A stretch of DNA of 64,000 bases. Source: Candidatus Dormiibacterota bacterium. Its GTDB lineage: Bacteria; Chloroflexota; Dormibacteria; Aeolococcales; Aeolococcaceae. This document shows, in pieces, positions 1,967 through 60,564 of the stretch. Every line of letters begins with the position of its first letter. Position 1 is the first letter of the stretch. A program made the translations under genes and the position numbers. A model generated the notes under the pieces. It was not told where the DNA came from, ran no database searches, and saw only the letters and a program-made list of their open reading frames with translations. The stretch spans positions 39,594-103,593 of the forward strand of contig DASRDZ010000010.1 of NCBI GenBank assembly GCA_035652335.1, written 5' to 3'.

Positions 1967-2173
1967 CGCACGGAGAGAGTGCAGGCTGGCCGGACCCGCG
2001 GGGGTGGTTGCGGGCCGGCCGCCTGCGAGGGGGGAGAGATTTGGGCCGCGGGTTCGCGGTCACGGCCCACCGTGCGGAAGTGGTGGTGCTCCCGGCCCGC
2101 TGCCACCCGGTTGGAGGTCTGAGTGGGGTGCGAGCCGGCCACCGCGGGAGACTTTAGCAGGATCATTGCCTTA

Positions 2174-2189
2174 GTGCAACCGTTTGCAC
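2174..2189. promoter_or_regulatory. Palindromic operator-like site GTGCAAccgtTTGCAC upstream of the LLM oxidoreductase
   Basis: Perfect 6-bp inverted arms with a 4-nt spacer, inside the 268-bp gap between the SMP-30 stop and the LLM start. Moderate GC and no run of Ts, so a transcription-factor site is more likely than a terminator. Confidence 0.25.
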
Positions 2190-2234
2190 GGAACCTCTCT
2201 GCGACGGCGTGGCGGGCGGCCCCGGCCGGGCTCG

Positions 2235-3131
2235 TCAGCCGGCGAAGAGGCGCGTCTGCCGCCCGCGCACGCCCGGCTTGCAGCGGAAGACGCCGCCCTC
2301 GCCCGGCCCGTCGTGGGGCAGCCCCTCGGGGTAGGCGCCTGCGCAGGTGATGTAGAGCTCGTCGAGGTCCTCGCCGCCGAAGACGGCGCTGGTCACCGCC
2401 AGCGGCGGGATGGTGACCACCTGGAGGATGTTCCCCTCGGGGTCGTAGCGGCGCACCTCGCCGGCCCCGTGCACCGCCACCCACAGCGCGCCCTCGGCGT
2501 CGAGGGTCATCCCGTCGGGGACGGTGAGCCCCGCCGGCGAGCTGTCGTCGTTGGGGATCTCGAAGGCGACGCGGCGGTTGCCGACGGTGCCCGCCGCGGC
2601 GTCGTAGTCGAAGGCGTCGACGCGGTAGGCGAAGGAGTCGATGTAGTAGAGGGTGCGCTCGTCGTCGGTCCAGTCCAGGCCGTTGGAGATGGTGACGTCC
2701 TCCAGCACGGTGTGGACCGACCCGTCGGGATCGAGGCGGTAGAGCGTGCCGGCACCCTGGTCGTACTCGTAGGCCATGGTGCCCGCCCAGAAGCGGCCCT
2801 GCGGGTCGCACTTGCCCTCGTTCATGCGCAGGTCGGGCCGGTCGGCCAGCACGGGGGCGATCATCTCCACCGCGCCTCCGCCGGCGTCGATCAGACCGAA
2901 GCCGTCCTGCACGGCGACGACGTAGCCGCCGTCGCGGCGCGGGGCGAAGGCGCCGATGTGCTGCCCGATGCCGTCGACGGTGTGCCGGCCGCTGCGCGGG
3001 TCGAGGTGGTGCAGCTCGCCGGACATGATGTCGACGAAGTCGAGCGCGCCGGTTGCCGGGTTCCAGACGGGCCCCTCGCCGAGCTTGCAGCGGCAGTCGA
3101 GGATGCACTCCGCGGTGAGCGAGGTGATCAT
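2235..3131 (-). CDS. SMP-30/gluconolactonase/LRE family lactonase (regucalcin-like)
   Basis: 298 aa. GGAGGG RBS 7 nt upstream of the ATG (3131). Beta-propeller family pattern (GEGPVWNPATGALDFVDI...TISNGLDWTDDERTLYYIDS...VPDGMTLDAEGALWVA). Sits downstream of the giant GH on the same strand. Confidence 0.85.
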   Translation of the reverse strand: MITSLTAECILDCRCKLGEGPVWNPATGALDFVDIMSGELHHLDPRSGRHTVDGIGQHIGAFAPRRDGGYVVAVQDGFGLIDAGGGAVEMIAPVLADRPDLRMNEGKCDPQGRFWAGTMAYEYDQGAGTLYRLDPDGSVHTVLEDVTISNGLDWTDDERTLYYIDSFAYRVDAFDYDAAAGTVGNRRVAFEIPNDDSSPAGLTVPDGMTLDAEGALWVAVHGAGEVRRYDPEGNILQVVTIPPLAVTSAVFGGEDLDELYITCAGAYPEGLPHDGPGEGGVFRCKPGVRGRQTRLFAG

Positions 3132-3177
3132 GGATTCTTCCCTCCACAGGCCGGCGGCTCAGGGCCGGCCGACTTCG

Positions 3178-9201: not shown

Positions 9202-11537
9202 ACGCTCCACGGACCGCCACGCCGCAGGGCGTCCGTCCCACCGGGACGGCGGCCGCGCTTGGGCTGCGCCTGCGGGCGAGCTGGCGAGCCATGGCGGCGG
9301 CGCTGGCGTCGGAGGCGCGCCTCTGGGCGCCCGCCGCGGTGTGGGCGCGGCTGCGCGCCCTGCCGCTGCGGCGGAGGGTCGCCATCGCCGGCTGGATCGG
9401 CCTGGTGGTTGCCGTCATGATCGCCGGCAACCTGCCCTTCGGCAGCGACCACGGCATCCTCCTGCCGCGCAAGATCCCGCTCGGACTGGTGCTCCAGGGC
9501 GTGATCTTCGGTGCGGTGTACTCGCTGGTGGCCATCGGGCTGGTGCTGGTCTACCGCGCCGGCCGCTACATCAACTTCGCCCAGGGCGGCGCCGGCGCGG
9601 TGGGCGTGGTGCTCACCGCCAAGCTCATCCAGATCACCGGGATGAACTTCTTCCTCGCCGCGATCGTCGGCGTGGCGGCAGCCGGGCTGCTGGCGATGCT
9701 GGTGGAGGTGCTGGTCTTCCAGGGCCTGCGCATCTTCAGCTCGCCGCGCCTGGTCGCCACCGTGGCCACCCTCGGCGTGATGCAGCTCTTCGGCTTCGTC
9801 GAGTACATGGTGCGCGGCATCGAGGCGGACCACTACTACAACCTGCTGCCCATTCCCAAGGCGCCGCTCAACCTCTCGTTCAGCATCGGCATCGTCGACT
9901 TCAACGGCGCCCACGTCCTGGTGCTGCTGGTGGTGCCGGTGGTGGTGCTGGCGCTGACGCTGTTCCTGCGCCTCACCGACTTCGGCGCCGCCATCCAGGC
10001 CGCCGCTGAGAATGCGGACCGCGCCCGGCTGGTGGGCATCACGGTGCGCCGCATGCACACCTACGTGTGGGCGATCGCGGGCGTGCTCAGCGGGCTCACC
10101 GCCATCCTCGCCGCGCCCTTCTTCAACTTCTCCAACGGCGTCAGCTCAGGACCGTCGCTCTTCCTGCTCGCCCTGGCACCCGCGGTGCTGGGTGGCATGA
10201 ACAGCCTGGCGCAGACCTTCTTCGCCTCCCTCGGGCTCGGCGTGATGGAGTCCGTGGTGGGCTGGAACTACAACGTGGCGACGCTGGAGATGGTGCTCCT
10301 CGGCGTGCTGCTCGTCGGCCTGCTGCTGCGCCGCCGGTTGACCAGCCGCACCACCGAGGGCGAGGAGCGCTCCTTCGCGGTGGCCTCGCGGGTGCGCCAG
10401 TTCCCACGCGAGCTGGCCAGGTTGCCGCTGGTGCGCGCCTGGCGCGGGGGCTTCCGCGCTCTGCTGCTCGGGATGGCCGTCCTGCTGCCGCTCGGCTTCG
10501 ACCTGCAGCACCAGGTGGAGGCCGAGAACGTCCTCGTGTTCATCATCGCCGGCGTCTCGCTGGTCCTGCTCACCGGCTTCTCGGGGCAGATCTCCTTCGG
10601 GCAGTTCGGCATCGTCGGCTTCGGTGCGCTCTTCGGCGGCTGGCTGCTCACCAACGCGGGCCTCGACTACTGGACCTCGATGCTCGTCGTCACCGTCGCG
10701 GGCGGCATGGTGGCGGCGGTCATCGGCATCCCCGCACTGCGCATCCGCGGCCTCTTCCTCGGGGCGGTGACGCTCGCCTTCGCGCTCGCCTGCACCGACT
10801 ACTTCTTCTCCGACAGCGGCCACTTCCCCATCTTCACGCCGAGCGGGCCCGTGCACCGTCCCAGCCTGCCCTTCGGCTGGGACCTGGGCACCCAGCTCGA
10901 CAAGGCGGGCGACGAGCTGCACCTCTACTGGTTCTGCCTCGGCGTGCTGGTGCTGGTGATGCTGATGGTCCGCGCGCTGCGCAACAGCCGCTGGGGGCGC
11001 GCCTTCCAGGCGGTGCGCGACAACGAGCGCGCCGCCAACGCCTACGGCGTGGGCTCGATGCAGACCAAGCTGCTCGCCTTCGCCGCCTCGGGGATGATCG
11101 CCGCGCTGGCCGGCTACCTCTACATCACCGTGCAGCAGCAGGTGGCCCCGACGTCGTTCCCGGTGACCACCTCGCTGGTGCTCTTCAGCGCGGTCGTCAT
11201 CGGCGGGCTCGGCTCGCTCTCCGGCGCGGTCATCGGCGGCCTCTTCTTCGAGGGCGTGCAGTACTTCATCAAGGTGGACGCCATCCAGCTGCTGACCACG
11301 AGCCTCGGCTTGCTGGTGGTGCTGGCGTTCTTCCCGGGAGGGCTGGGCTCGCTGTTCTTCAACGTGCGCGACGCGCTGCTCCGCCGCTACGCGCTGCGCC
11401 GCCGCATCGTGGTGCCGTCGCTGCTCGCCGACCGTCGGGTCGAGGACGGCACGGCGCCGGATGCCGAGGCTGCGCTGGTGGGCAACGCGGTCACCGCCGC
11501 AGCACCGGTCGGCGTCGGCGTGGGAGGAGGACAGTGA
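9198..11537 (+). CDS. Fused LivH-LivM branched-chain-amino-acid-type ABC transporter permease (two permease domains, 779 aa)
   Basis: The first half carries a LivH-like signature (LVAIGLVLVYRAGRYINFAQGGAGAVG) and the second half a LivM-like one (LLTGFSGQISFGQFGIVGFGALFGGWLL). The ATG overlaps the upstream stop; the stop TGA 11535-11537 overlaps the GTG of the next gene. Confidence 0.85.
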   Translation: MNAPRTATPQGVRPTGTAAALGLRLRASWRAMAAALASEARLWAPAAVWARLRALPLRRRVAIAGWIGLVVAVMIAGNLPFGSDHGILLPRKIPLGLVLQGVIFGAVYSLVAIGLVLVYRAGRYINFAQGGAGAVGVVLTAKLIQITGMNFFLAAIVGVAAAGLLAMLVEVLVFQGLRIFSSPRLVATVATLGVMQLFGFVEYMVRGIEADHYYNLLPIPKAPLNLSFSIGIVDFNGAHVLVLLVVPVVVLALTLFLRLTDFGAAIQAAAENADRARLVGITVRRMHTYVWAIAGVLSGLTAILAAPFFNFSNGVSSGPSLFLLALAPAVLGGMNSLAQTFFASLGLGVMESVVGWNYNVATLEMVLLGVLLVGLLLRRRLTSRTTEGEERSFAVASRVRQFPRELARLPLVRAWRGGFRALLLGMAVLLPLGFDLQHQVEAENVLVFIIAGVSLVLLTGFSGQISFGQFGIVGFGALFGGWLLTNAGLDYWTSMLVVTVAGGMVAAVIGIPALRIRGLFLGAVTLAFALACTDYFFSDSGHFPIFTPSGPVHRPSLPFGWDLGTQLDKAGDELHLYWFCLGVLVLVMLMVRALRNSRWGRAFQAVRDNERAANAYGVGSMQTKLLAFAASGMIAALAGYLYITVQQQVAPTSFPVTTSLVLFSAVVIGGLGSLSGAVIGGLFFEGVQYFIKVDAIQLLTTSLGLLVVLAFFPGGLGSLFFNVRDALLRRYALRRRIVVPSLLADRRVEDGTAPDAEAALVGNAVTAAAPVGVGVGGGQ

Positions 11538-46170: not shown

Positions 46171-46194
46171 CCCGCGACGGGGGTGACACACACA

Positions 46195-47940
46195 ATGCCG
46201 TCGCGGGTGGGCAGCATCAGGGGCAGGTGGCGCCTGCGCGGTCTCGGCGTTCTCGCCGGTGCGGTGCTCGCGATCCTGCTCGGCGTGCAGGGCGCGGTGA
46301 CGGCGCTCGCCGACTGCGGCAACCTCCACGCGGCGGCGATCCAGGGCAGCTGGCAGATCCGCGTCACCTTCGACGGGTTCACCGGGTCGGCCGCGCCCGG
46401 GGTCGCGCGCCAGCCGGGGAACGTCGCCGTCGACGACGTCACCTTCCAGCCGGGCTGCGCGTCGAACGGCACCTGCGGCGTGCAGATGCAGGGCACGCAG
46501 GGATCGCTGAGCTTCTTCAGCAACACCAGCGGCCTGGAGGGCCCGGATCCCGACCACCCGCTGGTCGAGCAGGCCGACGGCACCTGGACCACCCAGTTCC
46601 GGCCGGGTGGCATCGGCGGCCGCAACCTGCCCCCCTGCTCGCCGCCGCCGCTGACGCGCACCCTCGTCCTCGCGGTGCAGCAGGCGGTCCCCTCGTCGTC
46701 GGCGAGCACGGGATGGAACGCCGTGGTGATGACCGGCACCGAGACGATCGTCTCCTACTGGACGTGCAACGGCAGCACCGGCGTGCCCTCGTCGGTCGAG
46801 AACTACACGCTGCTGGCGGTCCCCGCCGGCGCGCCGTTCCCCGCGTCGTCGCGGCTCGCCTGCGGCACGACGCTGAGCGCACCGGCCGCGCCCGCGGTGA
46901 CCGTCACGGGGTCGGGCGCCGTGGCCCAGTCGTCGTTCAGCAGCGCGCTGGCGACGCCGTCACAGAGCTTCGGCTCGGCGGGCACCACCATCGTCAACCT
47001 GGTGGTGACCATCGGGCTGGTGCTGTTCATCACCTTCCCCGCCCAGCTCTTCAACCGCACGCTGGAGGAGAACTACGACGACATCCGCGACATCCTCAGC
47101 CGGCGCTTCGGCTGGGTGCGGCGGATGCGCCGCGAGGTGGCCGCGGAGTCCACCCGCGAGACGCGGCTCGGCGTCTTCGCGGCCGTGGTGCTGGGCGGCG
47201 CGCTGCTGGGGTCGCTCAACGACCCGGGCTTCGGCTTCAACGCCAGCTCGGTGCTCACCTATCTCGGCGTGGTCGCCTCGATGCTGACCGGGCTGACGGC
47301 GGGCACCATGGCGGCGAAGCTCTACCGCCGCGCGCGCGGCGAGGACGCCAGCGGCAGGCTGCACGCACTGCCCGCCGGGCTGCTCGTCGCCGGCGCCTGC
47401 GTGCTGCTCTCGCGCTCGACGCACTTCACCCCTGGCTACCTGTACGGCGTGATCTTCGGCGTCGCCTTCACCGCCAAGCTGAGCCGCTCGCGCGAGGGGG
47501 CCGGCATCGTCGTGGGCACGGCGACGACGCTGGCGCTGGCGGTGCTGGCCTGGATCCTCTGGGTGCCGGTGCACGACCGCAGCGGCGGAGTTTCTGCCAA
47601 CGCCGGCCTCATCCTGGTGGCCGACTTCCTCGCCCCGCTGGTGGTCGGCGGTTTCGTGGGCAGCGTCATCGGGCTGTTCCCGCTGCGCTTCCTCTCCGGG
47701 GGCACGCTCTTCGGCTGGGATCGGCGCGTCTGGGCGGCGACCTTCGGCGTGGCGCTCTTCGGCCTGGTCCAGGTGCTGCTCCACCCCGGCGCCTCTCCGG
47801 CGCACAGCGGCAACGCGCCGATGGTCACCGCCATCGTGCTGTTCCTCTGCTTCGGCCTTCTCTCGCTGGGCTTCAACGCGTACTTCGAGCGGCGCAAGAA
47901 GCGGCGGCAGGCGGCCGCGGTCACAGCGGGTCACGCGTAG
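46195..47940 (+). CDS. Membrane protein: signal peptide, Cys-containing extracytoplasmic domain of about 270 aa, and a C-terminal polytopic (about 6 TM) domain; function unknown
   Basis: ATG at 46195 (or GTG at 46183) is downstream of a TTGACA-17-TACACT promoter. Signal: MPSRVGSIRGRWRLRGLGVLAGAVLAILLG. Hydrophobic helices run from about aa 280 onwards. The overlapping Arg-rich ORF 46227..48293 is rejected. Confidence 0.55.
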   Translation: MPSRVGSIRGRWRLRGLGVLAGAVLAILLGVQGAVTALADCGNLHAAAIQGSWQIRVTFDGFTGSAAPGVARQPGNVAVDDVTFQPGCASNGTCGVQMQGTQGSLSFFSNTSGLEGPDPDHPLVEQADGTWTTQFRPGGIGGRNLPPCSPPPLTRTLVLAVQQAVPSSSASTGWNAVVMTGTETIVSYWTCNGSTGVPSSVENYTLLAVPAGAPFPASSRLACGTTLSAPAAPAVTVTGSGAVAQSSFSSALATPSQSFGSAGTTIVNLVVTIGLVLFITFPAQLFNRTLEENYDDIRDILSRRFGWVRRMRREVAAESTRETRLGVFAAVVLGGALLGSLNDPGFGFNASSVLTYLGVVASMLTGLTAGTMAAKLYRRARGEDASGRLHALPAGLLVAGACVLLSRSTHFTPGYLYGVIFGVAFTAKLSRSREGAGIVVGTATTLALAVLAWILWVPVHDRSGGVSANAGLILVADFLAPLVVGGFVGSVIGLFPLRFLSGGTLFGWDRRVWAATFGVALFGLVQVLLHPGASPAHSGNAPMVTAIVLFLCFGLLSLGFNAYFERRKKRRQAAAVTAGHA

Positions 47941-48976: not shown

Positions 48977-51448
48977 GTGGCGGACACAAGCCGTTCGCCG
49001 GACCGGTTGCACGTCGCCCGGTGCTACGGTGATGTGGCCATCCGCATCGCCTTCACCTCGTCGAGCATCCCGCGTCGCTGCGGCATCGCCACGTTCACGG
49101 CGGACCTGATGGCCGCCATCAGGACCGCGGCGCCGGACACCCGGTGCAGCGTCGCGGCCATCGACGAGGCCAACGTGGTGCGGCCCTACGGACCTGAGGT
49201 GCGCTGGCGCATCCGGCAGGGCGAGCCCGAGAGCTACCGCACGGCGGCGCTCGCCATCAACGCGTCCAACGCCGACGTCGTCAACGTGCAGCACGAGTTC
49301 GGCCTCTACGGCACGTGGCGCGAGCCCGGCTACCGTGACGGTCGCTGGGTGGAGACCGGCTACGAGGACCACCTTCGCGAGTTCCTCGACACCATCCGAA
49401 AGCCGGTGATCACCACCCTGCACACCGTGCTTCCCGACCCGCCACGATCGGTGCGCGACGCGGTCCGCTCCATCGCCGAGCGCAGCGACGAGGTCGTCGT
49501 CATGGCGAGCACCGCCATCGACGTCCTCGCCGCCGACTACGGGGTCACCCATGCGCCGGTGGTCATCCCTCACGGCATGCCGGCGATCGAGCCGCACGGT
49601 CGCGTGCGACTCAAGGCCAAGCTCGGCGTCGAGGGACGCACCATCATCTCGACGTTCGGCCTGGTCGATCCTCGCAAGGGGTTGGAGTACATGGTCGAGG
49701 CGATGCCCGCGGTGGTGACGCGCCATCCGCGAGCGCTGTACCTGATCGCCGGGCAGACCCATCCCGAGCTGCTCAGGGCGCAGGGCGAGGCGTATCGCAA
49801 CGGCCTGGTCGACGACGTGCGCCGGCTCGGCATGCAGAGCCACGTCGCCTTCATCGACCAGTACATGTCGCAGCGCGACATCGTCGAGCTCCTGCTGGCC
49901 AGCGACGTGTACGTGACGCCGTACCTCGACCCCAACCAGATCACCAGCGGGACTCTCTCGTACGCGCTGGGGGCCGGCAAGGCGGTGGTGTCGACGCCCT
50001 ACCTGCACGCGGCCGAGGCGCTCGCGGACGGCCGCGGCCTGCTCGTCCCGTTCCGCGACGGCGATGCACTGGCGATCGCCGTGCTGTCGATCCTCGACGA
50101 TCCCCGACGCAAGGAGACCCTGGAGCGCGGCGCCTACGCGTACGCGAAGGATTCGGCGTGGCCGCGCGCCGCGGCGCGATTCGTCGAGCTGGCGCACGCC
50201 GTCGACAGTGCGCGGCGGGTGCGACATGCCGAGCGGCGCGCCGCTTCCCGCCACGCGGAGGCCGGCCTGGGGCAGCGCGTTGCGGGCAACCCGATCATCA
50301 CGCCCGCCGACGTCCCACCCTCGCGCCCCGGGCTCGAGGTCGTCTCGGTGTTCAACGCGGCCGCGGCGCGGGTGGACGGCGAGGTCATCCTGCTGCTGCG
50401 CGTCGGTGAGCGCCCGCGCACCGACGTCGATCCCCCCGAGGGCTCGATGACGTTCGACCTGAACGGTCCCGAGCCCCGCCTCTCGCCGCTGGCCCCAGGC
50501 ATCCCTCGTGACCAGCTCGTCGGCGTCGCCTTCCTGGACACGACGCCGCAGCCGCCGCAGGTCGTCGACGTGTACCTGCCAAGGGACATGCCGGGGCTCG
50601 ACCTCAGCGACTCACGGACCATCCGCTACCGCGGGTCGACGGGCGGCTTCACGGCCGCGGCCGACGACGTCACCGACCTCCTCACCCAGATGTCCCACCT
50701 GCGCGTGGCGCGCAGCGCCGACGGCGAGCACTTCCACGTCGACGACGCTCCCGCGCTCGCACCGGTGGACCGTCTCGAGGAGTACGGCTGCGAGGATCCG
50801 CGCGCCACCTGGCTCGACGGTGCGTGGGAGATCACCTACGTCTCGGTCAGCCGGCTCGGCATCACCACCAGCCGCGCCACCACCACCGACTTCCGCGCGT
50901 TCGAGCGCAGGGGGGTGATGTTCCTGCCCGACCACAAGGACGTGGTGCTCTTCCCCGAGCGCATCGGTGGGCGGTACGTGGCGCTCACGCGCCCGATGCC
51001 GCAATCGTTCGGGCGCGTGCTCGGCATCTGGATCGCCTTCTCCGACGACCTGCAGCAGTGGGGCGATCACCGGCCGCTGGCGCTGCCGCGCTGGGGAACG
51101 TGGGACGAGCTGCGCACCGGGGCGGGCACCGTTCCCTTCCGCGTCGCCGAGGGCTGGCTGGAGCTCTACCACGGCGTCGACCGCGATCAGCGCTACGCGA
51201 TGGGTGCGCTGCTCCTCGACGCGGACGATCCCACGCGCGTGCTTGCCCGATCGCGCCGCCCCGTCCTGGTGCCCAGCGAGCCCTTCGAGCGGGTGGGCGT
51301 CTTCGGCAACGTCGTCTTCTCCTGCGGGCACGTGCCCCTCGACGACGACGGTGCGCGCATCCGCCTCTACTACGGCGCCGCGGACACCTGCCTGGGAGCC
51401 GCCGACTTCGCGGTCCGCGACATCGTGGACGACCTCGAGCCATGCTGA
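48977..51448 (+). CDS. Bifunctional fusion: N-terminal GT4-family glycosyltransferase (about aa 1-410) plus C-terminal GH130-family glycoside phosphorylase/hydrolase (about aa 440-823)
   Basis: One uninterrupted 823-codon frame. The GT4 part carries the GT-B EX7E region (GRTIISTFGLVDPRKG ... YVTPY ... E). The GH130 part has GNPIITPADVPP...SVFNAAAARVDGEVILLLRVGERP, GCEDPRATW, YHGVDRD and YYGAADTC motifs. Several start codons are possible (GTG 48977 or GTG 49034). Confidence 0.8.
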   Translation: MADTSRSPDRLHVARCYGDVAIRIAFTSSSIPRRCGIATFTADLMAAIRTAAPDTRCSVAAIDEANVVRPYGPEVRWRIRQGEPESYRTAALAINASNADVVNVQHEFGLYGTWREPGYRDGRWVETGYEDHLREFLDTIRKPVITTLHTVLPDPPRSVRDAVRSIAERSDEVVVMASTAIDVLAADYGVTHAPVVIPHGMPAIEPHGRVRLKAKLGVEGRTIISTFGLVDPRKGLEYMVEAMPAVVTRHPRALYLIAGQTHPELLRAQGEAYRNGLVDDVRRLGMQSHVAFIDQYMSQRDIVELLLASDVYVTPYLDPNQITSGTLSYALGAGKAVVSTPYLHAAEALADGRGLLVPFRDGDALAIAVLSILDDPRRKETLERGAYAYAKDSAWPRAAARFVELAHAVDSARRVRHAERRAASRHAEAGLGQRVAGNPIITPADVPPSRPGLEVVSVFNAAAARVDGEVILLLRVGERPRTDVDPPEGSMTFDLNGPEPRLSPLAPGIPRDQLVGVAFLDTTPQPPQVVDVYLPRDMPGLDLSDSRTIRYRGSTGGFTAAADDVTDLLTQMSHLRVARSADGEHFHVDDAPALAPVDRLEEYGCEDPRATWLDGAWEITYVSVSRLGITTSRATTTDFRAFERRGVMFLPDHKDVVLFPERIGGRYVALTRPMPQSFGRVLGIWIAFSDDLQQWGDHRPLALPRWGTWDELRTGAGTVPFRVAEGWLELYHGVDRDQRYAMGALLLDADDPTRVLARSRRPVLVPSEPFERVGVFGNVVFSCGHVPLDDDGARIRLYYGAADTCLGAADFAVRDIVDDLEPC

Positions 51449-52539
51449 GGCAGCTCGCCCGCCTCACCCGCGCCGTGCCGGCGGCAGGGCCCGCCGCCGT
51501 CGCACTCGCGGTGTACGCCGATGCCGACGATGCGCTGGTCCCCGCGCGAGAATCGGGAGTCGAAGGCGTCGCCTGCGTCGACGACGCCGCCCGCGCGATC
51601 CTGCTGCTCTGCGCTGTGTGGGAGGACACCCGGCTGCCCTGGGTGCGCACGTGGTGCGAGGGGCTCCTCGACTTCCTGGCCTGGATGCAGAACCCGGACG
51701 GGCAGTGGGTGAACTTCGTCAGCGACTGGGACGGGACGCGCAACCGCGGAGGCAGCAGCTCCGTCGCCGGCGGCGCCTTCTGGCAGGCGCGTGCGCTCCA
51801 GGCCGCGGCGCGCGCGGCCATCGTCCTGGATGACGCGCGCGCCGATGCGATGCTGGACCGGGGCATCGTCTGGATGCGCGCGCCCGCGACGCCGGACGTG
51901 CGCGCCCTGCACGTCATGACCGCGGTGGACCTGTTGCGAGCGGGCCGGTTCCCGCGGTTGCGCGACCACCTCACCGGTTGGATCGACCAGATGCTGACCT
52001 GCACGCGTGACGGGATGCTGATGAACGCGCCGAACGAGACCGGCTCTCCCCACCTGTGGGGGCACGTCGAGGAGGCTGCGCTGGCCGACGGCGGCGCGCT
52101 GCTCGGCCGCGACGGCGTGGTCGACGTCGCCCGGCGCAGTGGAGAGCTGCTCTTCCGCGACGTCATCGGCGCCGGCTTCGACCTGCCTCACGTGCAACCG
52201 TACGACGTGGCCTCGGCGATCCTGGTCATGGACCGCCTCCATGCCGTCACCGGCGCGGCGGAGTACGCCGCGCTCGCCCAGACCGCCCGCCGGTGGTTCG
52301 ACGGGCGCAACCCGGCTCGCCGTCCGGTCTACGACACGAGCAGGGGGCGTGTCGCCGACGGCATCGACCAGGGACGGCTCAGCCGCAACTCCGGGGCCGA
52401 GTCCAACATCGTCGGCGCGCACGCGCTCCTGGATCGCACCGTGGAGCAGGCGCGGCGGCTCGGCGCCAATGCGGCGCTTCCCTGGCGAGATGCCGCGATG
52501 CCGCGCCGGGCCGTCGACGCCGCGCGGCCGGAGGCCTGA
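51442..52539 (+). CDS. Hypothetical protein, possible (alpha/alpha)6-barrel glycosidase/epimerase-like fold, translationally coupled to the GT4-GH130 gene
   Basis: ATG at 51442 overlaps the upstream stop (ATGCTGA). 365 aa and non-repetitive (ACVDDAARAILLLCAVWEDTRLPWVRTWCEGLLDFLAWMQNPDGQW). The track ORF 50824..52539 upstream of 51442 is a frame artefact overlapping the fusion gene. Confidence 0.5.
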   Translation: MLRQLARLTRAVPAAGPAAVALAVYADADDALVPARESGVEGVACVDDAARAILLLCAVWEDTRLPWVRTWCEGLLDFLAWMQNPDGQWVNFVSDWDGTRNRGGSSSVAGGAFWQARALQAAARAAIVLDDARADAMLDRGIVWMRAPATPDVRALHVMTAVDLLRAGRFPRLRDHLTGWIDQMLTCTRDGMLMNAPNETGSPHLWGHVEEAALADGGALLGRDGVVDVARRSGELLFRDVIGAGFDLPHVQPYDVASAILVMDRLHAVTGAAEYAALAQTARRWFDGRNPARRPVYDTSRGRVADGIDQGRLSRNSGAESNIVGAHALLDRTVEQARRLGANAALPWRDAAMPRRAVDAARPEA

Positions 52540-53458: not shown

Positions 53459-53513
53459 GCGCGAGCCTCTATTGGATTCTGGCCGGTGATGCGGTGCGCC
53501 GTGCCGGCGGCTG

Positions 53514-53600
53514 CGGAGCGAGAGGGATTCGAACCCCCGAGGGCTTGTCGGCCCTTGTGGTTTTCAAGACCACTCCGATCAACCACTCCGGCATCGCTCC
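53514..53600 (-). tRNA. tRNA-Ser (anticodon TGA), class II with long variable arm
   Basis: Minus-strand read: GGAGCGA-TG-CCGGAGTGGTTGATCGG-A-GTGGT-CTTGAAA-ACCAC-A-AGGGCCGACAAGCCCTC-GGGGGTTCGAATCCCTC-TCGCTCC-G. A 7-bp acceptor, the GTTCGAATC T-loop, anticodon loop CT-TGA-AA and a long variable arm identify it as Ser. CCA is not encoded. Confidence 0.85.
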
Positions 53601-53641: not shown

Positions 53642-54682
53642 TCAGTTCGGCGCCGGCGCGCCGACATCGCCGTCCTGCGGCCGGAAGTGGACCAGCGCGA
53701 GCGCCGCCGGCACGGCGATCGATCCCAGCCCGCGCGAGACGGCGACGTCGCGCATCTCCCAGCGCGGCGCGAACTTGTCCTTGAACCGCGCCAGGGAGCG
53801 GTAGTCGTACCCGAACGTGCCGTGGCGGAACAGCCAGTGCCGCAGCGAGCGCGCCAGCCGTCCGTCGGGCGCGTCGCCGTCATGCGTCGAGTCGCGGAAG
53901 GGCGCGACTCCGAGCGACGCCACGCGCAGGCCGCGGGCGCGCGCCGCGTCGAGCGCCGCCGCGATGCACAGGTCCATCGCCCCCGCGGGTGCGACGGGTG
54001 AGCGCCGGAACATGTCGAGCGCGATGCCGTGCCCACCGAGGCGCAGCCACGTGGTGAACGCCTGCGCGCGCCCGTCCGCACCGCGGACGACGCTGACCGT
54101 CGCGTCCGCGTCGAGGATCTCCCCGAAGCGCCCCACCGAGAATCCCAGCTCGCGCCAGGGCCGCCGCGCCAGCCAGGCGTCCGACACCCCGCGCAGCTCC
54201 TCCCACGTCGCGCCGTCGACGTCGTCCGCCCGCAGCACCGACGCCGACATCCCGGCGCGGCGGGCCCGCGACAGCTCGTGCCGCAGATTGGCGCGCCGCG
54301 GCGACGACGGGCAGAACGACTCCAGGTCGACCACCGCCTCCTCGCCGAATGCGTACACCCGCAATCCTGCGGCACGGTACGCCGGTCGCAGCGACGGATG
54401 CGTCTGCATGAAGCACACCGGCAGGCGCGCCGTGCGGCAGATGGCGACGAACTCGTCGACGGCGCGCCGCTGCAGCTCGGGCGCCACCAGCGGATCGCCC
54501 GCCGCGACGACCACCCCCGCGGCGACCCGGAACCCGACGACGGCACCGCAGTGCAGCCGCAGCTGCTGCTTGTCCCGCGAGCCTGCCAGGCAGCTCAGCT
54601 GCGATGCGGCGTGGCGCCGGCGGGCCGCCTCGACCTCGGCTGCGTCCGCCCGCAGCAGCTCCAGGGCTGCCGTCCTTCCCAT
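53642..54682 (-). CDS. Standalone MprF C-terminal-domain-like protein (DUF2156 / LPG-synthase C-domain; aminoacyl-tRNA-dependent aminoacyl transferase, VlmA-like), no membrane flippase domain
   Basis: Real start is the ATG at 54682 (MGRTAALELLRADAAEV...), 346 aa. The roughly 800 upstream codons of the track ORF 53642..57076 are an Arg-rich artefact on the opposite strand to the TPR gene. It resembles the soluble C-terminal synthase domain of MprF/LysX (...YAFGEEAVVDL...FSVGRFGE...DYRSLARFKDKFAPRWEMRDVAV). Confidence 0.75.
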   Translation of the reverse strand: MGRTAALELLRADAAEVEAARRRHAASQLSCLAGSRDKQQLRLHCGAVVGFRVAAGVVVAAGDPLVAPELQRRAVDEFVAICRTARLPVCFMQTHPSLRPAYRAAGLRVYAFGEEAVVDLESFCPSSPRRANLRHELSRARRAGMSASVLRADDVDGATWEELRGVSDAWLARRPWRELGFSVGRFGEILDADATVSVVRGADGRAQAFTTWLRLGGHGIALDMFRRSPVAPAGAMDLCIAAALDAARARGLRVASLGVAPFRDSTHDGDAPDGRLARSLRHWLFRHGTFGYDYRSLARFKDKFAPRWEMRDVAVSRGLGSIAVPAALALVHFRPQDGDVGAPAPN

Positions 54683-54740
54683 GGCGCCGAAGCCTACCCT
54701 CCCGGGACCGCCGAGGGCGGTCGCGGGACGGTGCCCTGGG

Positions 54741-54746
54741 TATACT
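54741..54746 (+). promoter_or_regulatory. TATACT -10 hexamer of the tRNA-Ser(GCT) promoter
   Basis: GGGTATACTCGAC; the hexamer ends 13 nt before tRNA position +1. Confidence 0.35.
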
Positions 54747-54759
54747 CGACACCCTCCGC

Positions 54760-54854
54760 GGGGAGGTGGCTGAGTGGCCGAAAGCGCCCGCCTGCTAAGC
54801 GGGTGAGGGGTATTAAACGCTCCTCCGAGGGTTCGAATCCCTCCCTTCCCGCCA
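54760..54854 (+). tRNA. tRNA-Ser (anticodon GCT), class II, CCA encoded
   Basis: GGGGAGG-TG-GCTGAGTGGCCGAAAGCGC-CCGCC-TGCTAAG-GCGGG-(long variable arm)-CGAGGGTTCGAATCCCTC-CCTTCCC-G-CCA. The acceptor has 6 Watson-Crick pairs plus one G-T. A TATACT -10 hexamer lies at 54741-54746, 13 nt upstream. Confidence 0.85.
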
Positions 54855-55072
54855 GGGCTGCTTCGTGCTCCGTCTTGGGGTTGGTTCCGTTTGGTGCGAA
54901 CCCCGGACACAACGAAGCCCCGCGGGCTCGGCGTCGGGGCGGCGCACGCTCCCGTCGGAGTTGCCTTTACCTGCTTTGACAATCGTGAACGCGGGCAAGG
55001 TCGCGTCGCGGTGCGCAGCGGTGGAGCATCGCCAGCGCAGGCCCCGAAGGCCGTGCAGCCGGGAGTCCCGCC

Positions 55073-58000
55073 ATGTCCCACAGGCGAGGCAGCGCCATGC
55101 GATGGAGCGTCGGGGTCGTCGTGGTGACGGCTGCGATGGTCGCGTTTCCCGTCGCCCTGGTCGCCGCCCAGCCCGGGCTGGCCACGCCGCCCGCCCCGCC
55201 GCCTGCCGCGCCCCGCCTGCCCCCGCTGCCCGCCTCGCAGCCGGGTGCGGCGGCGACGCTCGACGCGGTGGTCGCCCACGGACCGTTCCTCGCCACGGGC
55301 TTCCCCGACCTCCCCTCCGAGGACGCCGCCACGGAGGTCGCGGCCCTCGACCCCCGCGACGGGGCCGCCGCCCAGCGCGCCTTCCTCGACGCCTGGGACG
55401 CCATGCCCGCCGCCGACCCGCAGCTCTCCGAGCAGTTCGCCGCCGCATTGATGGCCGGCCCGCTGGCCATGAACCAGGACCCGCCCAGCCCCGCCGACCA
55501 GGCCTTCGAGGGCTTCACCGGCGACCCCGACAACGCCGCCCGGCTGGCCAACGCGGCGGTGGCCCTGTTCACCCTCGGCGTGGCGCAGATGGACGGCGCT
55601 GCGGTGACCGACCAGTCGGTCGGCAAGGGCGACGACGTCGAGGACAACGCCGCCCAGCTCCTCCAGCTCGGCTACCGGGCGTTCTCGGCCGACGCCCCGC
55701 AGGCCGTGGAGACGCTGAGCCTCGACCTCGGCTTCCTCACCCCGCTGGTCGGCGAGTTCAACTCCTCCGCGGTCGACGCGCTGGAGGCGTGGCTGCGCAC
55801 GCATCCCGCCGACGCGACGGCGCGCTACCTGCTGGGCACCCTGCTGGGCGCGGGGTTCACCAGGGCCGCCGTGGTCGGCCAGGTGTCGCCGACCCCGCCG
55901 CCTCCGCTGGCCGCGGCGATGCAGGTGCTCGCACCCCTGGAGCACGACGCGCGCACCGCCGCGCTGGGCTACTCCGCCGTCGGCGACGCCGAGATGCGCG
56001 AGGCGCAGCGGGCCGTGGCGGAGAGGCCCTACGCCGCGCGGCAGGACGCCCGCGACGCGCTCGACGCCTACGACGCCGCCATCCGGCTCAACCGCGACCC
56101 CGGCCTGCTGGCCGGCCGCGCCGTCGCCCTCGACTTCCTCGGCGACGAGGCCGGCGCCGTCGCCGCCCAGCAGCGCGCCGTTGCCGCGGCGCCGCGGTCG
56201 GCGGCCGGGCTGGTCGAGTTGGCGGCGCTGCAGCAGAAGCTGTGCGACTCGCGGTCGCCGTGCGACGAGTCGGCGGTCGAGGGCACCGCGCGGTCGGCGA
56301 TGGGCCTGCTGGAGTCGGCATGGCAGCCGCGCGTCGACACGTCGCGCTTCCCGCGGTGGACGGAGCCCTGCCTCTCGGAGTGGAGCGGCGAGGTCGTCGC
56401 CGCCACCGACCCCGGCGACGATCGCGGCTACGCCGGCTACTCCTTCGGCAGCCTCGACGACGCCGTCCCGGTGATGCGCACCCCGGAGGGCTGCGGTGCC
56501 GGCGGAGCCGTCTTCCTCAGCTACACGCTGGTCCCCACCAGCGACGACACCGGCGTCGACGCCCGCCACGCCGACGGCGCCATGCTCGACACCGCCGCGT
56601 CGATCGCCATGCAGGCCGCGGCGCTCCGCGGCACCGCCGGCGACGCCGACACCGCGTACCGAGCCTGGCGCGCCGACGTCGCCGACGCCCGCCTCGGCGC
56701 CACCGCGGGCACGGCGGTGTGGACGGGACGCCGCCATCTCATGGCGTCGTACGACGAGGCGGCGCACCTCGTCGTCGCACCCGCGCCGGCGACGCCCGAC
56801 GCCGGCCCCCAGCAGTGGCCGGAGTCGCTCTTCGTCGCCGACTCGATCCTGCGCCACGCCGGCCGCTTCAGCCAGGCGGCGCGGGTCTGCCAGGCGTCGG
56901 TGTCCGCCCTGGCGGGCACCACCTACCCGCTCCGGTGCGAGGGGGAGGACGACTTCCTCGCCGGCGACGCCGCCGCGGCGCAGCGGCTCCTGCAGCCGCT
57001 CGACGGCAGGCTGCGGACCCCCGCCGACAGGGACTGGCTGAGCGACGACCTGCTCGCCGCCGACATCCGCCTGCACCGGGATGCCGCCGCGCGCAGCATC
57101 GTCGCCGCCGCCACCGACGACGACGTCAGCAGGGAGAAGCTCGGCGAGGTGGCCATGGACGCCGGCGACCTGCGCACCGCCGAGGCGGAGTTCGCCAGGG
57201 TGGTGCAGTCACAGCCGCAGGGACGCCCGCCCTCGCTGGTCGCCGAGGCCGCCTTCTCGGACCACGGCATCGTCCTGCTGCGCGAGATCCAGCCCGCCGC
57301 CGACGCCACCCCCGACTGCACGACGCACCGCGCGGACTGCGAGACGGCGCGCGCCGACTTCCTCGCCGCGTCGGCGATGGACCCGCGGAACCCGGTCTTC
57401 CTGCTCAACCTCGCCTGGGCCGACCGCCTCCTCGACTTTCCGCCGGCAGTGACCGAAACCGTGCTGCGGCGCGCCGTCGCGGAGGACCCCACCCTGTTCC
57501 CCGCCTACAACGACCTCGGCGTCCTCGAAGCCGGGCAGGGCGACACCGACGCCGCCCGCCAGGACCTGGAGCGGGCGCTCGCCGTCGCGCCCCAGTACGA
57601 CCTGGCCACGTGGAACCTCGGCGTCCTCGACATGCGCACGGTCGGCGGCATCCCCGCCGGGCAGGCGCTGCTGGCGGCGGCGACGTCGCGCAACCCCGTG
57701 CTGCGCGGCGAGTCGACGGTCGAGCTGCGCACCGACGAGCGCGTCTACGACGTGGCCCTGGGCCGGGGCGCGCTCCAGCCGTTCGACCGCACCTACGGGG
57801 TGGCCGCGGCGGCGCTCGGCGGCGTCAGCCTGGGCGCCCTGGCGGTGGGCACCCTCGTCGACCTGGGCAAGGAGCGCGGCCTGGAGACCGTCCTCGACCA
57901 GCTCGGCGAGCGGGCGCGGCGCTTCACCGCCGCCGTGGAGCGGCGCCTGGGCCGGGCGCTGCGCGGCATGCGGGCGCGGCCGTGGATGGTCACCGCACCG

Positions 58001-58540
58001 ATCCTGGTGGCGCTGACCGCGACGGTGACGGTGTGGACGGGGCAGGGGAGCGGCCTCCCGTCGGTGCTGATCGCCGCCTATGCGGCGCTGCTCGGCCTGC
58101 TGGTGCACGAGACCGGGCACCTCGTCGCCGCCGCGGCGCTGCGCCGGCGGGTGCGCCCGGTGCAGTCGCCGCTGCTCCTCGGCGTCGCCGTCCTCATGCT
58201 GCCGCTGCGCCTGCTCGGCGGCCCCTGCGTCGGCCACGAGGTGGTCGCCCGCGAGGGCGAGGCGGCGGGCGCGGCGCCGCGCCGCGACCTGGTCGTCTAC
58301 TGGGCCGGTCCCGCCGCCAACCTGCTCGTCGCCCTCGCCGCCGGGCTCGCCGCCGTGGCGCGGCCGCTGCCCATGCTGCGCGTCATCCTGCTGGTGCAGC
58401 TCGGCATGGTGGCGTTCAGCTTCCTGCCCGTCGAGCCCATGGAGGGTTCGCGGCTGGGCCGGGTGCACAGGCGGCCGCTCGCCGTGTTCCTGCTCGCCCT
58501 CGTGGTGGTCGCCATCCTCTTCTCGGAAGGCGTGCTGTGA
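55073..58540 (+). CDS. Giant secreted TPR-repeat protein with a C-terminal site-2-protease (peptidase M50-like, HExxH in TM) membrane domain
   Basis: Signal peptide MRWSVGVVVVTAAMVAFPVALVAAQP. A Pro-rich linker and TPR-like repeats follow (AYNDLGVLEAGQGDTDAARQDLERALAVAPQYDLATWNLG). The last roughly 230 aa are polytopic with LLVHETGHLVAAAAL and FLPVEPMEGSRL (the S2P LDG-like motif). The alternative ATG at 55097 is also possible. Confidence 0.65.
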   Translation: MSHRRGSAMRWSVGVVVVTAAMVAFPVALVAAQPGLATPPAPPPAAPRLPPLPASQPGAAATLDAVVAHGPFLATGFPDLPSEDAATEVAALDPRDGAAAQRAFLDAWDAMPAADPQLSEQFAAALMAGPLAMNQDPPSPADQAFEGFTGDPDNAARLANAAVALFTLGVAQMDGAAVTDQSVGKGDDVEDNAAQLLQLGYRAFSADAPQAVETLSLDLGFLTPLVGEFNSSAVDALEAWLRTHPADATARYLLGTLLGAGFTRAAVVGQVSPTPPPPLAAAMQVLAPLEHDARTAALGYSAVGDAEMREAQRAVAERPYAARQDARDALDAYDAAIRLNRDPGLLAGRAVALDFLGDEAGAVAAQQRAVAAAPRSAAGLVELAALQQKLCDSRSPCDESAVEGTARSAMGLLESAWQPRVDTSRFPRWTEPCLSEWSGEVVAATDPGDDRGYAGYSFGSLDDAVPVMRTPEGCGAGGAVFLSYTLVPTSDDTGVDARHADGAMLDTAASIAMQAAALRGTAGDADTAYRAWRADVADARLGATAGTAVWTGRRHLMASYDEAAHLVVAPAPATPDAGPQQWPESLFVADSILRHAGRFSQAARVCQASVSALAGTTYPLRCEGEDDFLAGDAAAAQRLLQPLDGRLRTPADRDWLSDDLLAADIRLHRDAAARSIVAAATDDDVSREKLGEVAMDAGDLRTAEAEFARVVQSQPQGRPPSLVAEAAFSDHGIVLLREIQPAADATPDCTTHRADCETARADFLAASAMDPRNPVFLLNLAWADRLLDFPPAVTETVLRRAVAEDPTLFPAYNDLGVLEAGQGDTDAARQDLERALAVAPQYDLATWNLGVLDMRTVGGIPAGQALLAAATSRNPVLRGESTVELRTDERVYDVALGRGALQPFDRTYGVAAAALGGVSLGALAVGTLVDLGKERGLETVLDQLGERARRFTAAVERRLGRALRGMRARPWMVTAPILVALTATVTVWTGQGSGLPSVLIAAYAALLGLLVHETGHLVAAAALRRRVRPVQSPLLLGVAVLMLPLRLLGGPCVGHEVVAREGEAAGAAPRRDLVVYWAGPAANLLVALAAGLAAVARPLPMLRVILLVQLGMVAFSFLPVEPMEGSRLGRVHRRPLAVFLLALVVVAILFSEGVL

Positions 58541-58680
58541 CGCCCCATCGCGCCCGGCGGATTTGACGCGCACGCGTCATTGCCCCAGACTCCGGCGGCA
58601 TAGGAAGGCGGACGTCCGGGAGGCGGCACGCAGTTCGCGGCGTGGGCGCACGTCCGCCGGCACAAGGAAGGGAGAGAGCC

Positions 58681-60564
58681 GTGGAAACCTCGATCCGAGC
58701 GCGCGCCGGCGCGCGCCCATCACGCCGGGCACTGGGAGTGCTCGGCGCCGCCGCCATCGCCGCGGCGGCCATCGCCGCGGGGCCGCAGGTCGCCGTCCGC
58801 GCCCAGGCCGGCTGCCCGAACGGCACGTCGCAGAACGGCGGCACGATCTCGCCGAGCGGCGGCGTGCCGTTCATCCTCTGCAGCGGGATGATCGCCAGCT
58901 TCGACGGCACGCCGCTCGACGTCGACGTCTCCATCCCGGCGTCGGCGAGCGGCGCGCTGCCACTGATGGTGATGATGCACGGCTGGGGCAACAGCAAGAC
59001 CGAGTTCGAGTCGACCACCCTCGCCGGCGACGGTGCGCATTCGTACGACTGGAACAACGCCTGGTTCACCGCCCAGGGGTATGCGGTTCTCACCTACACC
59101 GCACGAGGCTTCCATCAATCCTGCGGCAGGGAGAACTTCGTCCCTGTGGTGAACGCCGCCTGCGCCGGCAAGGCGAGCTGGACGCACCTCGCCGACCGCC
59201 GCTGGGAGGTGCACGACACGCAGTACCTCGCCGGCCTGCTCGTCGACGACGGTGTCGCCGACGCCAGCCACATCGCGGTCACCGGCGACTCCTACGGCGG
59301 TGGGCAGAGCTGGCTGCTCGCCCTGTCGCAGGACGAGGTGATGGCCACCGACGGCTCGACCTCGAGCTGGACGTCGCCCAACGGCACCGCGCTGCACGTC
59401 TTCGCCGCCGTGCCGCAGTACACCTGGAGCGACCTGCTGGAGGCGCTGACCGACAACGGCGGCGCGTCCGACGGCGCCAACGGCGCGCCCGCCCAGGCCG
59501 ACCACACGTCGCCGATCGGCGTCGAGAAGGCGAGCTACGTCGACGGCCTCTTCGCGCTCGGCGAGCAGACCGCGCAGTTCGCGCCGCCACAGGTCGATCC
59601 CACCGCCGACCTGGTGTCGTGGTTCGCCGGCCTCAGCGCGGGCGAGCCGTACGAGGTCAACCCGCAGGTGGCCAACGCGATCACCCAGGTGACCCAGTTC
59701 CGCTCGCCCTACTACATGGCCGTGCCGCCGGCGGGCCACGAGGTCCCCGTGCTGGCGCTGCAGGGCGTCACCGATCCGCTCTTCCCCGCCATCCAGGCGG
59801 AGCAGGAGATCCAGAAGCTGACCGCAGCAGACGCCGCCTACCCGGTGTGGTCGATCTACGGCGACATCGGCCACTCCTACGCCGCCAACCCGGGCGCGGT
59901 CTGGCAGACGCTCAACGGTGACGCCAACACCTGGCTCAGCACCATCCTCGCCGGTGGCACGCCCACGCTGGCGCGTGCCACCGTGGCGACCGTCGTCTGC
60001 AACTCGTCGCAGAGCACGACGTACCTCACCGGCGGCAGCCTCAGCGCCATCGCCACCTCGACGGTGACCCTCAGTGCGAGCGCCACCGCGACGACGAGCA
60101 GCGCCACCCCGCCGGGCCAGGAGGCCGAGCGTGCCGACCCCATCGTCAACGGCGGCGCACCGGGAACCACGCCTGGTTGCGTCACCATGCAATCGCAGAC
60201 CGACCAGGGCGTGGCCGCATGGACGTTCAGCCCGAGCACGCCGATCACCGTGGTGGGCAGCCCGGTGGTCGACGTCAGCGCCACCCTGCTCGGCACCAAC
60301 GCCGTGGTGGCGACCCGGCTGTGGGACCTCGACCCGCAGTCCGGCCGGCAGACGCTGATCACCCGCAACGTGTACCGCCTGGCCGGCACGCCGGGCTCGA
60401 CCGTCCCGCTCAGCTACGAGCTCTGGCCCACCGGCTGGCAGCTCGTCTCCGGGCACCAGCTCAAGCTCGAGATCACCCAGGACGACGCGCCCACCTGGCG
60501 CGCCGACAACCTGCCCTCGGCGCTGCTGCTCAGCGGCGTCAGCCTCACGCTGCCCACGGCGTAG
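58681..60564 (+). CDS. Secreted CocE/NonD (peptidase S15)-family alpha/beta hydrolase with a Tat-like signal
   Basis: GTG at 58681 follows GGAAGGGAGAGAG. The N-terminus SRRALGVLGAAAIAAAAIAAGPQVAVRAQA is twin-arginine-like. MVMMHGWGNS and the nucleophile elbow GDSYGGG; C-terminal beta-sandwich. A perfect 12-bp hairpin follows 13 nt after the stop. Confidence 0.7.
   Translation: METSIRARAGARPSRRALGVLGAAAIAAAAIAAGPQVAVRAQAGCPNGTSQNGGTISPSGGVPFILCSGMIASFDGTPLDVDVSIPASASGALPLMVMMHGWGNSKTEFESTTLAGDGAHSYDWNNAWFTAQGYAVLTYTARGFHQSCGRENFVPVVNAACAGKASWTHLADRRWEVHDTQYLAGLLVDDGVADASHIAVTGDSYGGGQSWLLALSQDEVMATDGSTSSWTSPNGTALHVFAAVPQYTWSDLLEALTDNGGASDGANGAPAQADHTSPIGVEKASYVDGLFALGEQTAQFAPPQVDPTADLVSWFAGLSAGEPYEVNPQVANAITQVTQFRSPYYMAVPPAGHEVPVLALQGVTDPLFPAIQAEQEIQKLTAADAAYPVWSIYGDIGHSYAANPGAVWQTLNGDANTWLSTILAGGTPTLARATVATVVCNSSQSTTYLTGGSLSAIATSTVTLSASATATTSSATPPGQEAERADPIVNGGAPGTTPGCVTMQSQTDQGVAAWTFSPSTPITVVGSPVVDVSATLLGTNAVVATRLWDLDPQSGRQTLITRNVYRLAGTPGSTVPLSYELWPTGWQLVSGHQLKLEITQDDAPTWRADNLPSALLLSGVSLTLPTA

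Follow-up and report, generated by a model that had tools for sequence, protein, structure and literature searches.

A tetratricopeptide-repeat solenoid joined to a site-2 protease-type membrane domain in a Dormibacterota genome and its relatives

The gene and its features

The DNA analysed here (the window) is a stretch of 64,000 nucleotides from contig DASRDZ010000010.1 of a Candidatus Dormiibacterota genome assembly (GCA_035652335.1). On its plus strand, positions 55073..58540 are occupied by an ATG-started open reading frame (ORF) of 1155 amino acid residues plus stop. An earlier note, made from the sequence alone, had described its product as a secreted tetratricopeptide-repeat (TPR) protein fused to a site-2 protease (S2P, family M50) membrane domain. 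The ORF is present as described there, and its third-position GC content (GC3) of 0.97 matches that of genuine genes elsewhere in the window, where GC content is 70–77% (73% overall). Its product consists of a TPR solenoid ectodomain joined to an S2P-type membrane domain, and the fusion is real and recurrent. An identical protein is deposited at NCBI as 'hypothetical protein VFC09_02170' of a Candidatus Dormibacteraeota metagenome-assembled genome (MAG). The annotated start of that record is located 8 codons downstream of the ATG used here; the longer start, with the sequence MSxRRG, is also found in P0002, a homologue 81% identical to the window protein.

The ratio of nonsynonymous to synonymous substitution rates (dN/dS) is ~0.3–0.4 against the 81% homologue and 0.34–0.68, depending on the region, against a homologue of 48% identity. 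By domain (against both homologues) it amounts to 0.32–0.34 for the catalytic core and 0.38–0.68 for the ectodomain, all these figures being probably overestimates given the extreme GC3. The gene is under purifying selection, the core somewhat more strongly than the ectodomain. No promoter-like or terminator-like sites were found in a scan of positions 54600–58800.

The features of the gene are listed below with the evidence for each; residue numbers refer to the 1155-residue protein, TM denotes a transmembrane helix and AF2 the AlphaFold2 model.

55100..55168, plus strand: N-terminal hydrophobic helix, residues 10–32 (Kyte-Doolittle maximum 2.55; preceded by RR..R; AF2 helix 7–36)
55169..55252, plus strand: Pro-rich linker, residues 33–60, TPPAPPPAAPRLPPLPASQP (composition)
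55253..57796, plus strand: extracytoplasmic TPR-like alpha-solenoid, residues 61–908, ~850 residues (AF2, Foldseek, family alignment, composition)
56330..56557, plus strand: non-helical insertion in the solenoid, residues 420–495, containing ..GDDRGYAGYSFGSLDD..GCGAGGAVF.. (family alignment, AF2)
57461..57697, plus strand: TPR units recognised by sequence models, residues 797–875 (Pfam TPR_17, TPR_2 and TPR_8 above cut-off)
57797..57871, plus strand: TM-A, residues 909–933, Gly/Ala-rich, running out to in (hydropathy; AF2 helix 916–933 of low confidence)
57872..57976, plus strand: Arg-rich cytoplasmic linker helix, residues 934–968, with 9 Lys+Arg (AF2 helix 937–959, composition)
57977..58537, plus strand: TM-B and the S2P/M50 catalytic core, residues 969–1155 (Pfam, family profile, hhalign, AF2), comprising TM-B 969–988, TM-C 995–1022 with HETGH, strands 1026–1030 and 1054–1058, TM-D 1070–1096 with GPAAN, TM-E 1100–1116, the PMEG turn and TM-F 1124–1151
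58106..58120, plus strand: HETGH, residues 1012–1016, comprising the catalytic Glu and two putative zinc-ligand His and lying in the third of TM-C next to the cytoplasm (homologues, hhalign)
58307..58321, plus strand: GPAAN, residues 1079–1083, equivalent of the S2P 'AGPxxN' motif, placed where TM-D ends on the cytoplasmic side (profile, census, hhalign)
58418..58447, plus strand: SFLPVEPMEG, residues 1116–1125, counterpart of NxxPxxxLDG (hhalign with FNLIPAFPMDG of MjS2P, census)

Homology of the C-terminal domain to site-2 proteases

A profile of 39 C-terminal domain sequences of the family was compared with 177,635 PDB sequences, and its matches were S2Ps only: RseP (7w6x, E 1.7e-6), MjS2P (3b4r, E 1.8e-5), SpoIVFB (8vjl, E 8.6e-5) and Aquifex aq_1964 (9j82, E 1.3e-3). 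The alignment with MjS2P spans the region from HExxH to PxDG. PDB sequence searches with the single core sequence or with a 3-sequence profile gave no match, and neither did NCBIfam on the C-terminal tail of the window protein. The Pfam model Peptidase_M50 (PF02163) is matched by 35 of the 43 full-length family members, with a best E of 1.7e-10. Alignment of the family with MjS2P and SpoIVFB by hhalign has a probability of 96.4% (E 1.5e-9) and brings HETGH into register with HELGH, AGPAAN with AGPL.. and FSFLPVEPMEG with FNLIPAFPMDG. Similarity both to the curated M50 models and to solved S2Ps is thus found at the level of the family. Judged from these profiles and alignments, the C-terminal domain is a genuine S2P/M50 homologue whose predicted ligand set is positioned as in RseP, MjS2P and SpoIVFB; that it is M50-like, as claimed earlier, is borne out, and an unrelated hydrophobic tail is refuted.

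Membrane topology

The solenoid is followed by six TM helices (TM-A to TM-F), the last four of which form the minimal S2P core. Modelled alone, the core has a mean predicted local distance difference test score (pLDDT) of 90.3. The predicted cytoplasmic loops carry 9, 6 and 3 Lys+Arg, and the predicted outer loops and tail carry 0, 1 and 0. According to the positive-inside rule, this distribution places the TPR domain outside and orients the HExxH helix out to in. Both hydropathy and the AF2 model locate HETGH inside the TM helix 995–1022 and not outside the membrane, in agreement with M50 proteases, where HExxH lies within a TM helix. HETGH and Glu1124 are both near the cytoplasmic leaflet according to the charge-based topology and the model. 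The predicted order of elements is that of an S2P core: an HExxH helix running out to in, cytoplasmic strands, a GPxxN helix running in to out and an LDG-type helix running out to in. The loop between TM-D and TM-E consists of 3 residues, and the chain ends 4 residues past the last TM helix. The ectodomain-to-protease layout of the earlier note holds as to the fusion itself; the additional TM helices 909–933 and 969–988 and the Arg-rich cytoplasmic linker had not been listed there.

Catalytic motifs and their variation in the family

Both motifs reported earlier, HETGH at residues 1012–1016 and FLPVEPMEG within SFLPVEPMEG at residues 1116–1125, are present. The number of HExxH motifs expected by chance from the composition of the window protein is 0.008. 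HETGH is invariant in the two full-length homologues (81% and 48% identity), and within the window clade, down to 48% identity, both His, the Glu and the acidic third ligand do not vary. The variation of the motifs was counted in 90 near-complete family domains. In GPxxN the Gly is invariant, the Pro is kept in 80 domains and the Asn in 74; this motif and the Gly-Pro of the strand region are conserved in the family.

The resemblance of FLPVEPMEG to the LDG motif of S2Ps is upheld by its in-register alignment with FNLIPAFPMDG of MjS2P, though with Glu for Asp. From this register it follows that Glu1124 stands in place of the Asp zinc ligand and Ser1116 in place of the conserved Asn. The third-ligand position is occupied by Asp in 75 of the 90 domains and by Glu in 13; Glu1124 of the window protein (PMEG) is acidic and at the same position. 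At the Asn position, Ser (39), Ala (33) and Thr (10) together account for 82 domains, and Asn is found in 5. In RseP the corresponding N394 hydrogen-bonds the substrate backbone (PMC9401612).

The combinations of catalytic residues in the 90 domains are as follows.

HExxH with Asp: 50 of 90
HExxH with Glu (window clade): 5 of 90
No catalytic Glu, both His and the acidic ligand kept: 31 of 90
Other degenerate combinations: 4 of 90

The full catalytic set is therefore kept in 55 of the 90 domains. In HxxxH the Glu is replaced by Ala, His, Leu, Val, Ile and others (HAxxH, HHxxH, HLxxH). The members without it include P0051, P0058, P0060, P0064, P0070, P0072, P0077, P0078, P0080, P0081, P0083 and P0094. 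Their pattern suggests a repeated or ancient conversion to metal-binding pseudoproteases. As for the Glu of the window clade, this residue often serves as a zinc ligand in other metalloproteases with HExxH (gluzincins). Since HExxH is intact and Glu is accepted as a zinc ligand elsewhere, activity is plausible.

Distribution of the family

The family was revealed by an exhaustive hidden Markov model search, in which a profile of residues 961–1155 was run against 1.84 billion cluster representatives. It returned 105 proteins at E<=1e-3, falling into about 105 clusters at 50% identity; most of them are 1000–1250 residues long and carry the domain at the extreme C-terminus. Word-index searches were weaker: the full-length query found 3 true relatives, the core profile found 7 fragments, and with the family profile the output was dominated by generic TPR proteins. 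The search for orthologues proposed in the earlier note thus shows the TPR-S2P fusion to be conserved, with the full-length form in about 50 cluster representatives.

A member is carried by 13 GTDB species representatives, all of them MAGs, from Chloroflexota (Limnocylindrales, Thermomicrobiales, Chloroflexia), Acidimicrobiia and one Aeromicrobium; the window adds Dormibacterota. The family is accordingly spread over Chloroflexota, Dormibacterota and Actinomycetota, in little-studied, uncultured soil bacteria represented by MAGs only. The public names of its members are automatic ('TPR repeat protein/Zn-dependent protease', 'TPR repeat protein', 'hypothetical protein').

Stand-alone short versions of the domain were considered and rejected: of those checked, one (L016) is cut at a contig end and the other (L017) is a full-length gene split by frameshifts. 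The latter occupies positions 1071–4585 of its locus (JGI metagenome 3300045996) as five consecutive same-strand ORFs, probably owing to frameshift errors. At L016, from the same metagenome, genes for a PrsW protease and two Zn_peptidase proteins come after the truncated gene (110–2961), a linkage seen once only; PrsW is a site-1 protease in sigma-W signalling of B. subtilis. At L003, in a Chloroflexia MAG, a DDE transposase fragment (9580–9996, minus strand) lies directly downstream of the family gene.

The TPR-like ectodomain

The full-length AF2 model has a pLDDT of 85.1 and a predicted TM-score (pTM) of 0.84. In this model residues ~80–880 form one continuous alpha-solenoid, its 36 helices being counted over residues 61–885. 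A Foldseek search of PDB gave 168 matches at E<=1e-3, and among the matches listed 50 of 50 are long TPR or TPR-like solenoid proteins, including Ctr9, Ski3, OGT, SPY, TTC7B, subunits of APC and IFT-A. Matches to Pfam TPR models are limited to residues ~797–875, the best-conserved part of the ectodomain (NDLGVL, YDLAxWNLGV), with TPR_17, TPR_2 and TPR_8 exceeding their cut-offs at residues 797–842; most of the repeats have diverged beyond what sequence models recognise. The columns W782, D814, N848 and G850 are invariant in the family. The ectodomain belongs to the TPR repeat proteins, superhelices built of tandem 34-residue helix-turn-helix units. Of the ~900 residues of TPR-like repeats proposed in the earlier note, a solenoid of ~850 residues is confirmed by AF2 and Foldseek, but recognisable Pfam units are confined to the short segment named above and the run of helices is interrupted by the insertion 420–495.

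This insertion shows short strands in the model, with pLDDT below 50 at residues 434–448 and 472–484. Its motif, DxGxLGxSxGSD...GGGG, is conserved family-wide; the window protein carries a GxSxG-like motif (GYSFGSLDD) and a Gly-rich stretch (GCGAGGAVF) there. The possibility that GYSFG represents the nucleophilic elbow of a serine hydrolase was set aside, as it is located in a loop of the solenoid, without an alpha/beta-hydrolase fold or a Pfam match.

The ectodomain is acidic (122 Asp+Glu versus 66 Lys+Arg). Its 8 Cys residues form four close pairs (391/397, 433/474, 606/622 and 749/756), and the pairs 606/622 and 749/756 are nearly invariant across the family. Such close pairs, two of them almost always kept, fit an oxidising, extracytoplasmic location. 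The ectodomain can be aligned over its entire length throughout the family, which points to a single ancient architecture and not to repeated shuffling of domains.

The N-terminal region

The signal peptide claimed earlier is partly borne out: a hydrophobic N-terminal segment is present. Its h-region is 23 residues long, and the segment may be retained as a type II signal-anchor instead of being cleaved off as a signal peptide. In the AF2 model it belongs to a helix of residues 7–36 (55091–55180) with pLDDT 85–93, a high value for a free signal peptide, and the helix may be packed on the catalytic bundle. Its orientation is of type II, as in S2P substrates. The Pro-rich linker that follows, likewise recognised in the earlier note, is 42% Pro over residues 37–60, and its PPLP motif is kept in the family consensus.

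Genomic surroundings

In the window the gene is accompanied by a pair of tRNA-Ser genes and by genes for DUF2156/LPG_synthase_C, a Crp-type regulator, an S15 peptidase and an SDR, with carbohydrate-active enzymes farther out; the tRNA-Ser, DUF2156 and S15 genes are where the earlier note had put them. The tRNA-Ser genes (TGA, 53513–53600, minus strand; GCT, 54760–54854, plus strand) flank the DUF2156/LPG_synthase_C gene (53645–54700, minus strand), which is without the usual MprF membrane domain. The downstream S15/PepX_C hydrolase (58642–60564, plus strand) has a twin-arginine-like N-terminus (PSRRALGVLGAAAIAAAA...AVRAQA), in line with the Tat secretion ascribed to it. Farther upstream on the plus strand, positions 48977–51448 encode an 823-residue fusion of a group-1 glycosyltransferase (residues ~214–386) with a GH130 beta-mannoside phosphorylase (residues 574–818). 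A same-strand ORF region at 51400–52536 has no Pfam match. The same is true of a 585-residue ORF at 46183–47940 (plus strand), whose GC3 of 0.96 is gene-like. A functional link of the gene to the S15 hydrolase or to the tRNA-Ser/DUF2156 genes was rejected, for the neighbours differ even at the 81%-identical homologue.

Comparison with known intramembrane proteases

Among the described S2P groups, group I is characterised by PDZ domains and group III by CBS domains, while no additional domain is found in groups II and IV, both uncharacterised; a TPR-bearing type is not mentioned in this grouping (PMC10202637). Full-text literature searches gave no description of a TPR plus S2P/M50 architecture. 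The window protein represents an undescribed architectural variant, or subfamily, of the known M50 protease family, and the architecture is as unusual as the earlier note had it.

Like MjS2P of M. jannaschii (3B4R) and SpoIVFB of B. subtilis (8VJL), both of group III, the window protein has a compact core without an insertion between the GPxxN and LDG helices. HExxH, AGPxxN and (N)xxPxxP(L/M)(D)G are in register, and the strand region after the HExxH helix is shared. In contrast to these enzymes, it has no CBS domain (no Pfam match), adds an N-terminal extracytoplasmic TPR solenoid of ~850 residues together with two linking TM helices, has a single TM helix after the LDG-type motif, and carries Glu for Asp and Ser for Asn.

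E. coli RseP (7W6X, group I) is the best PDB sequence match; it has the same four-TM core topology and a large ectodomain on the same face of the membrane. Its H22 and H26 are on TM1, which runs out to in; TM1 and TM2 are separated by a beta region, and D402 is located on TM3-C (PMC9401612). TM-C to TM-F of the window protein are predicted to reproduce this layout. In RseP the ectodomain, a PDZ tandem, interrupts the core between TM2 and TM3, whereas that of the window protein is a TPR solenoid N-terminal to the core; no PDZ domain is matched by Pfam in the window protein, and Asp402 and Asn394 of RseP correspond to Glu1124 and Ser1116.

The nearest precedent in design principle is the B. subtilis rhomboid YqgP/GluP. 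This intramembrane protease bears a TPR domain outside the cell, whose presumed ligands are proteins or peptides (PMC7231995). It differs in being an unrelated serine protease with only three TPR motifs, located C-terminally, and has no homology to the window protein. Plant EGY3 is an S2P-family pseudoprotease (PMC9355673), having lost catalytic residues like about a third of the TPR-S2P family; it is a eukaryotic thylakoid protein without a TPR ectodomain, and the window protein, unlike it, keeps HExxH.

Discussion

Taken together, these observations make it rather likely that the window protein belongs to an undescribed S2P (M50) subfamily and acts as an intramembrane zinc protease, with a TPR ectodomain that would bind a partner and select or gate the substrates. 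The protein is probably an active protease, as far as its residues indicate, and the sensor-protease proposed in the earlier note is plausible. We infer zinc binding by Glu1124, catalytic activity, substrate selection by the TPR domain and any signalling downstream of it. In the four-helix core, His1012, Glu1013 and His1016 would be on the out-to-in helix, followed by the membrane-proximal strands and the GPxxN helix, with Glu1124 on the next helix, at its cytoplasmic end. So arranged, the core would bind its zinc within the cytoplasmic leaflet, at a depth of a few residues, and would hydrolyse a TM segment of another protein. The TPR superhelix would be tethered on the extracytoplasmic face, on the same side as the PDZ tandem of RseP. 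It would most likely bind a protein or peptide partner and in this way select or gate what reaches the active site, a role suggested by analogy with the RseP PDZ tandem (PMC9401612) and the YqgP TPRs (PMC7231995).

Several observations weigh against this interpretation. By itself, the sequence of the window protein reaches 21.9 bits against PF02163, below the cut-off of 27.2, and a Foldseek search of PDB with the core model gave nothing significant, the top match being an RseP orthologue at E 1.5. Glu1124 is not the Asp that defines the family at the third-ligand position, being shared by only 13 of the 90 domains, and Ser1116 departs from the conserved Asn of M50. Proteolysis is not needed for the role, whatever it is, of the 31 members without the catalytic Glu. 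As to the surroundings, the Pfam-scanned genes of the window include no sigma or anti-sigma gene within ~20 kb. When the ORFs of 16 loci were compared all against all, the gene and the antisense ORFs shadowing it were all that recurred and no conserved neighbour was detected; no substrate candidate emerged from the gene neighbourhoods. With no conserved neighbours, the gene context is uninformative on the substrate.

The main competing explanation is that the M50-like bundle no longer cleaves and that the TPR platform uses it to anchor itself in the membrane, or as a module binding TM segments or metal, much as a pseudoprotease role has been proposed for plant EGY3 and, among rhomboids, for iRhoms. 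The large Glu-less fraction of the family, in which both His and the acidic ligand are nevertheless kept, is consistent with it, as are the Asp-to-Glu and Asn-to-Ser replacements that the window protein shows in its extended LDG motif, its Pfam score below cut-off and the precedent of EGY3 among S2Ps (PMC9355673). In the window clade, however, the Glu of HExxH and the acidic ligand are invariant down to 48% identity, GPxxN and the strand-region Gly-Pro are conserved, and purifying selection on the core is somewhat stronger than on the ectodomain (dN/dS 0.32–0.34 versus 0.38–0.68). Moreover, Glu as such is an ordinary zinc ligand in gluzincins. For the window protein we consider a non-cleaving scaffold unlikely.

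It was also proposed that the protein senses the envelope or a ligand and cleaves an anti-sigma factor by regulated intramembrane proteolysis, thereby switching on the regulon of an extracytoplasmic function (ECF) sigma factor. Anti-sigma factors are indeed the substrates of most characterised bacterial S2Ps (PMC10202637). As for the ectodomain, it is of a ligand-binding type and faces the correct side of the membrane. The coupling to an anti-sigma factor is not supported, since the absence of sigma and anti-sigma genes from the surroundings in the window is repeated among about 20 flanking genes of 11 related loci and at L001 and L002, where Pfam assigns unrelated functions. No conserved neighbour recurs in the 16 loci either, and the present evidence points to no substrate. 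S2P genes are often unlinked to those of their substrates (rseP is not in the rpoE-rseABC operon), so that the missing synteny is weak evidence against such a sensor. S2Ps also have housekeeping tasks, such as the clearing of signal-peptide remnants and quality control of membrane proteins. On balance, this specific pathway seems quite improbable.

More speculatively, and with still less confidence, the protein might be a one-component ligand-gated S2P. Its TPR superhelix would itself capture a protein or peptide signal of the envelope and license intramembrane cleavage, no separate site-1 protease being required; the N-terminal helix 7–36, packed on the catalytic bundle, might be a built-in pseudo-substrate or gate displaced by the ectodomain, and the members without the catalytic Glu, a third of the family, would derive from this device as receptors or decoys that do not cleave.

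Finally, a chance or artefactual fusion (an unrelated hydrophobic tail on a TPR protein, or an error of assembly or gene calling) could be suspected from the low Pfam score and from several short 'stand-alone' metagenome matches, but it is refuted by the M50 profile evidence and by the same end-to-end architecture in about 50 independent full-length representatives and 13 GTDB genomes, the short forms that were checked being truncated (L016) or frameshifted (L017).

In all domains of life, the step of regulated intramembrane proteolysis that takes place within the membrane is carried out by S2Ps, and what is known of their substrate selection rests almost entirely on PDZ-type (RseP) and CBS-type (SpoIVFB) enzymes. 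A practical pay-off from the protease described here hinges on a culturable host or a heterologous assay. The subfamily itself, in which the Asp zinc ligand has changed to Glu in some clades and the catalytic Glu has been repeatedly lost in others, would represent a natural experiment both in the gating of an intramembrane active site by an accessory domain and in the decay of intramembrane proteases into pseudoproteases.

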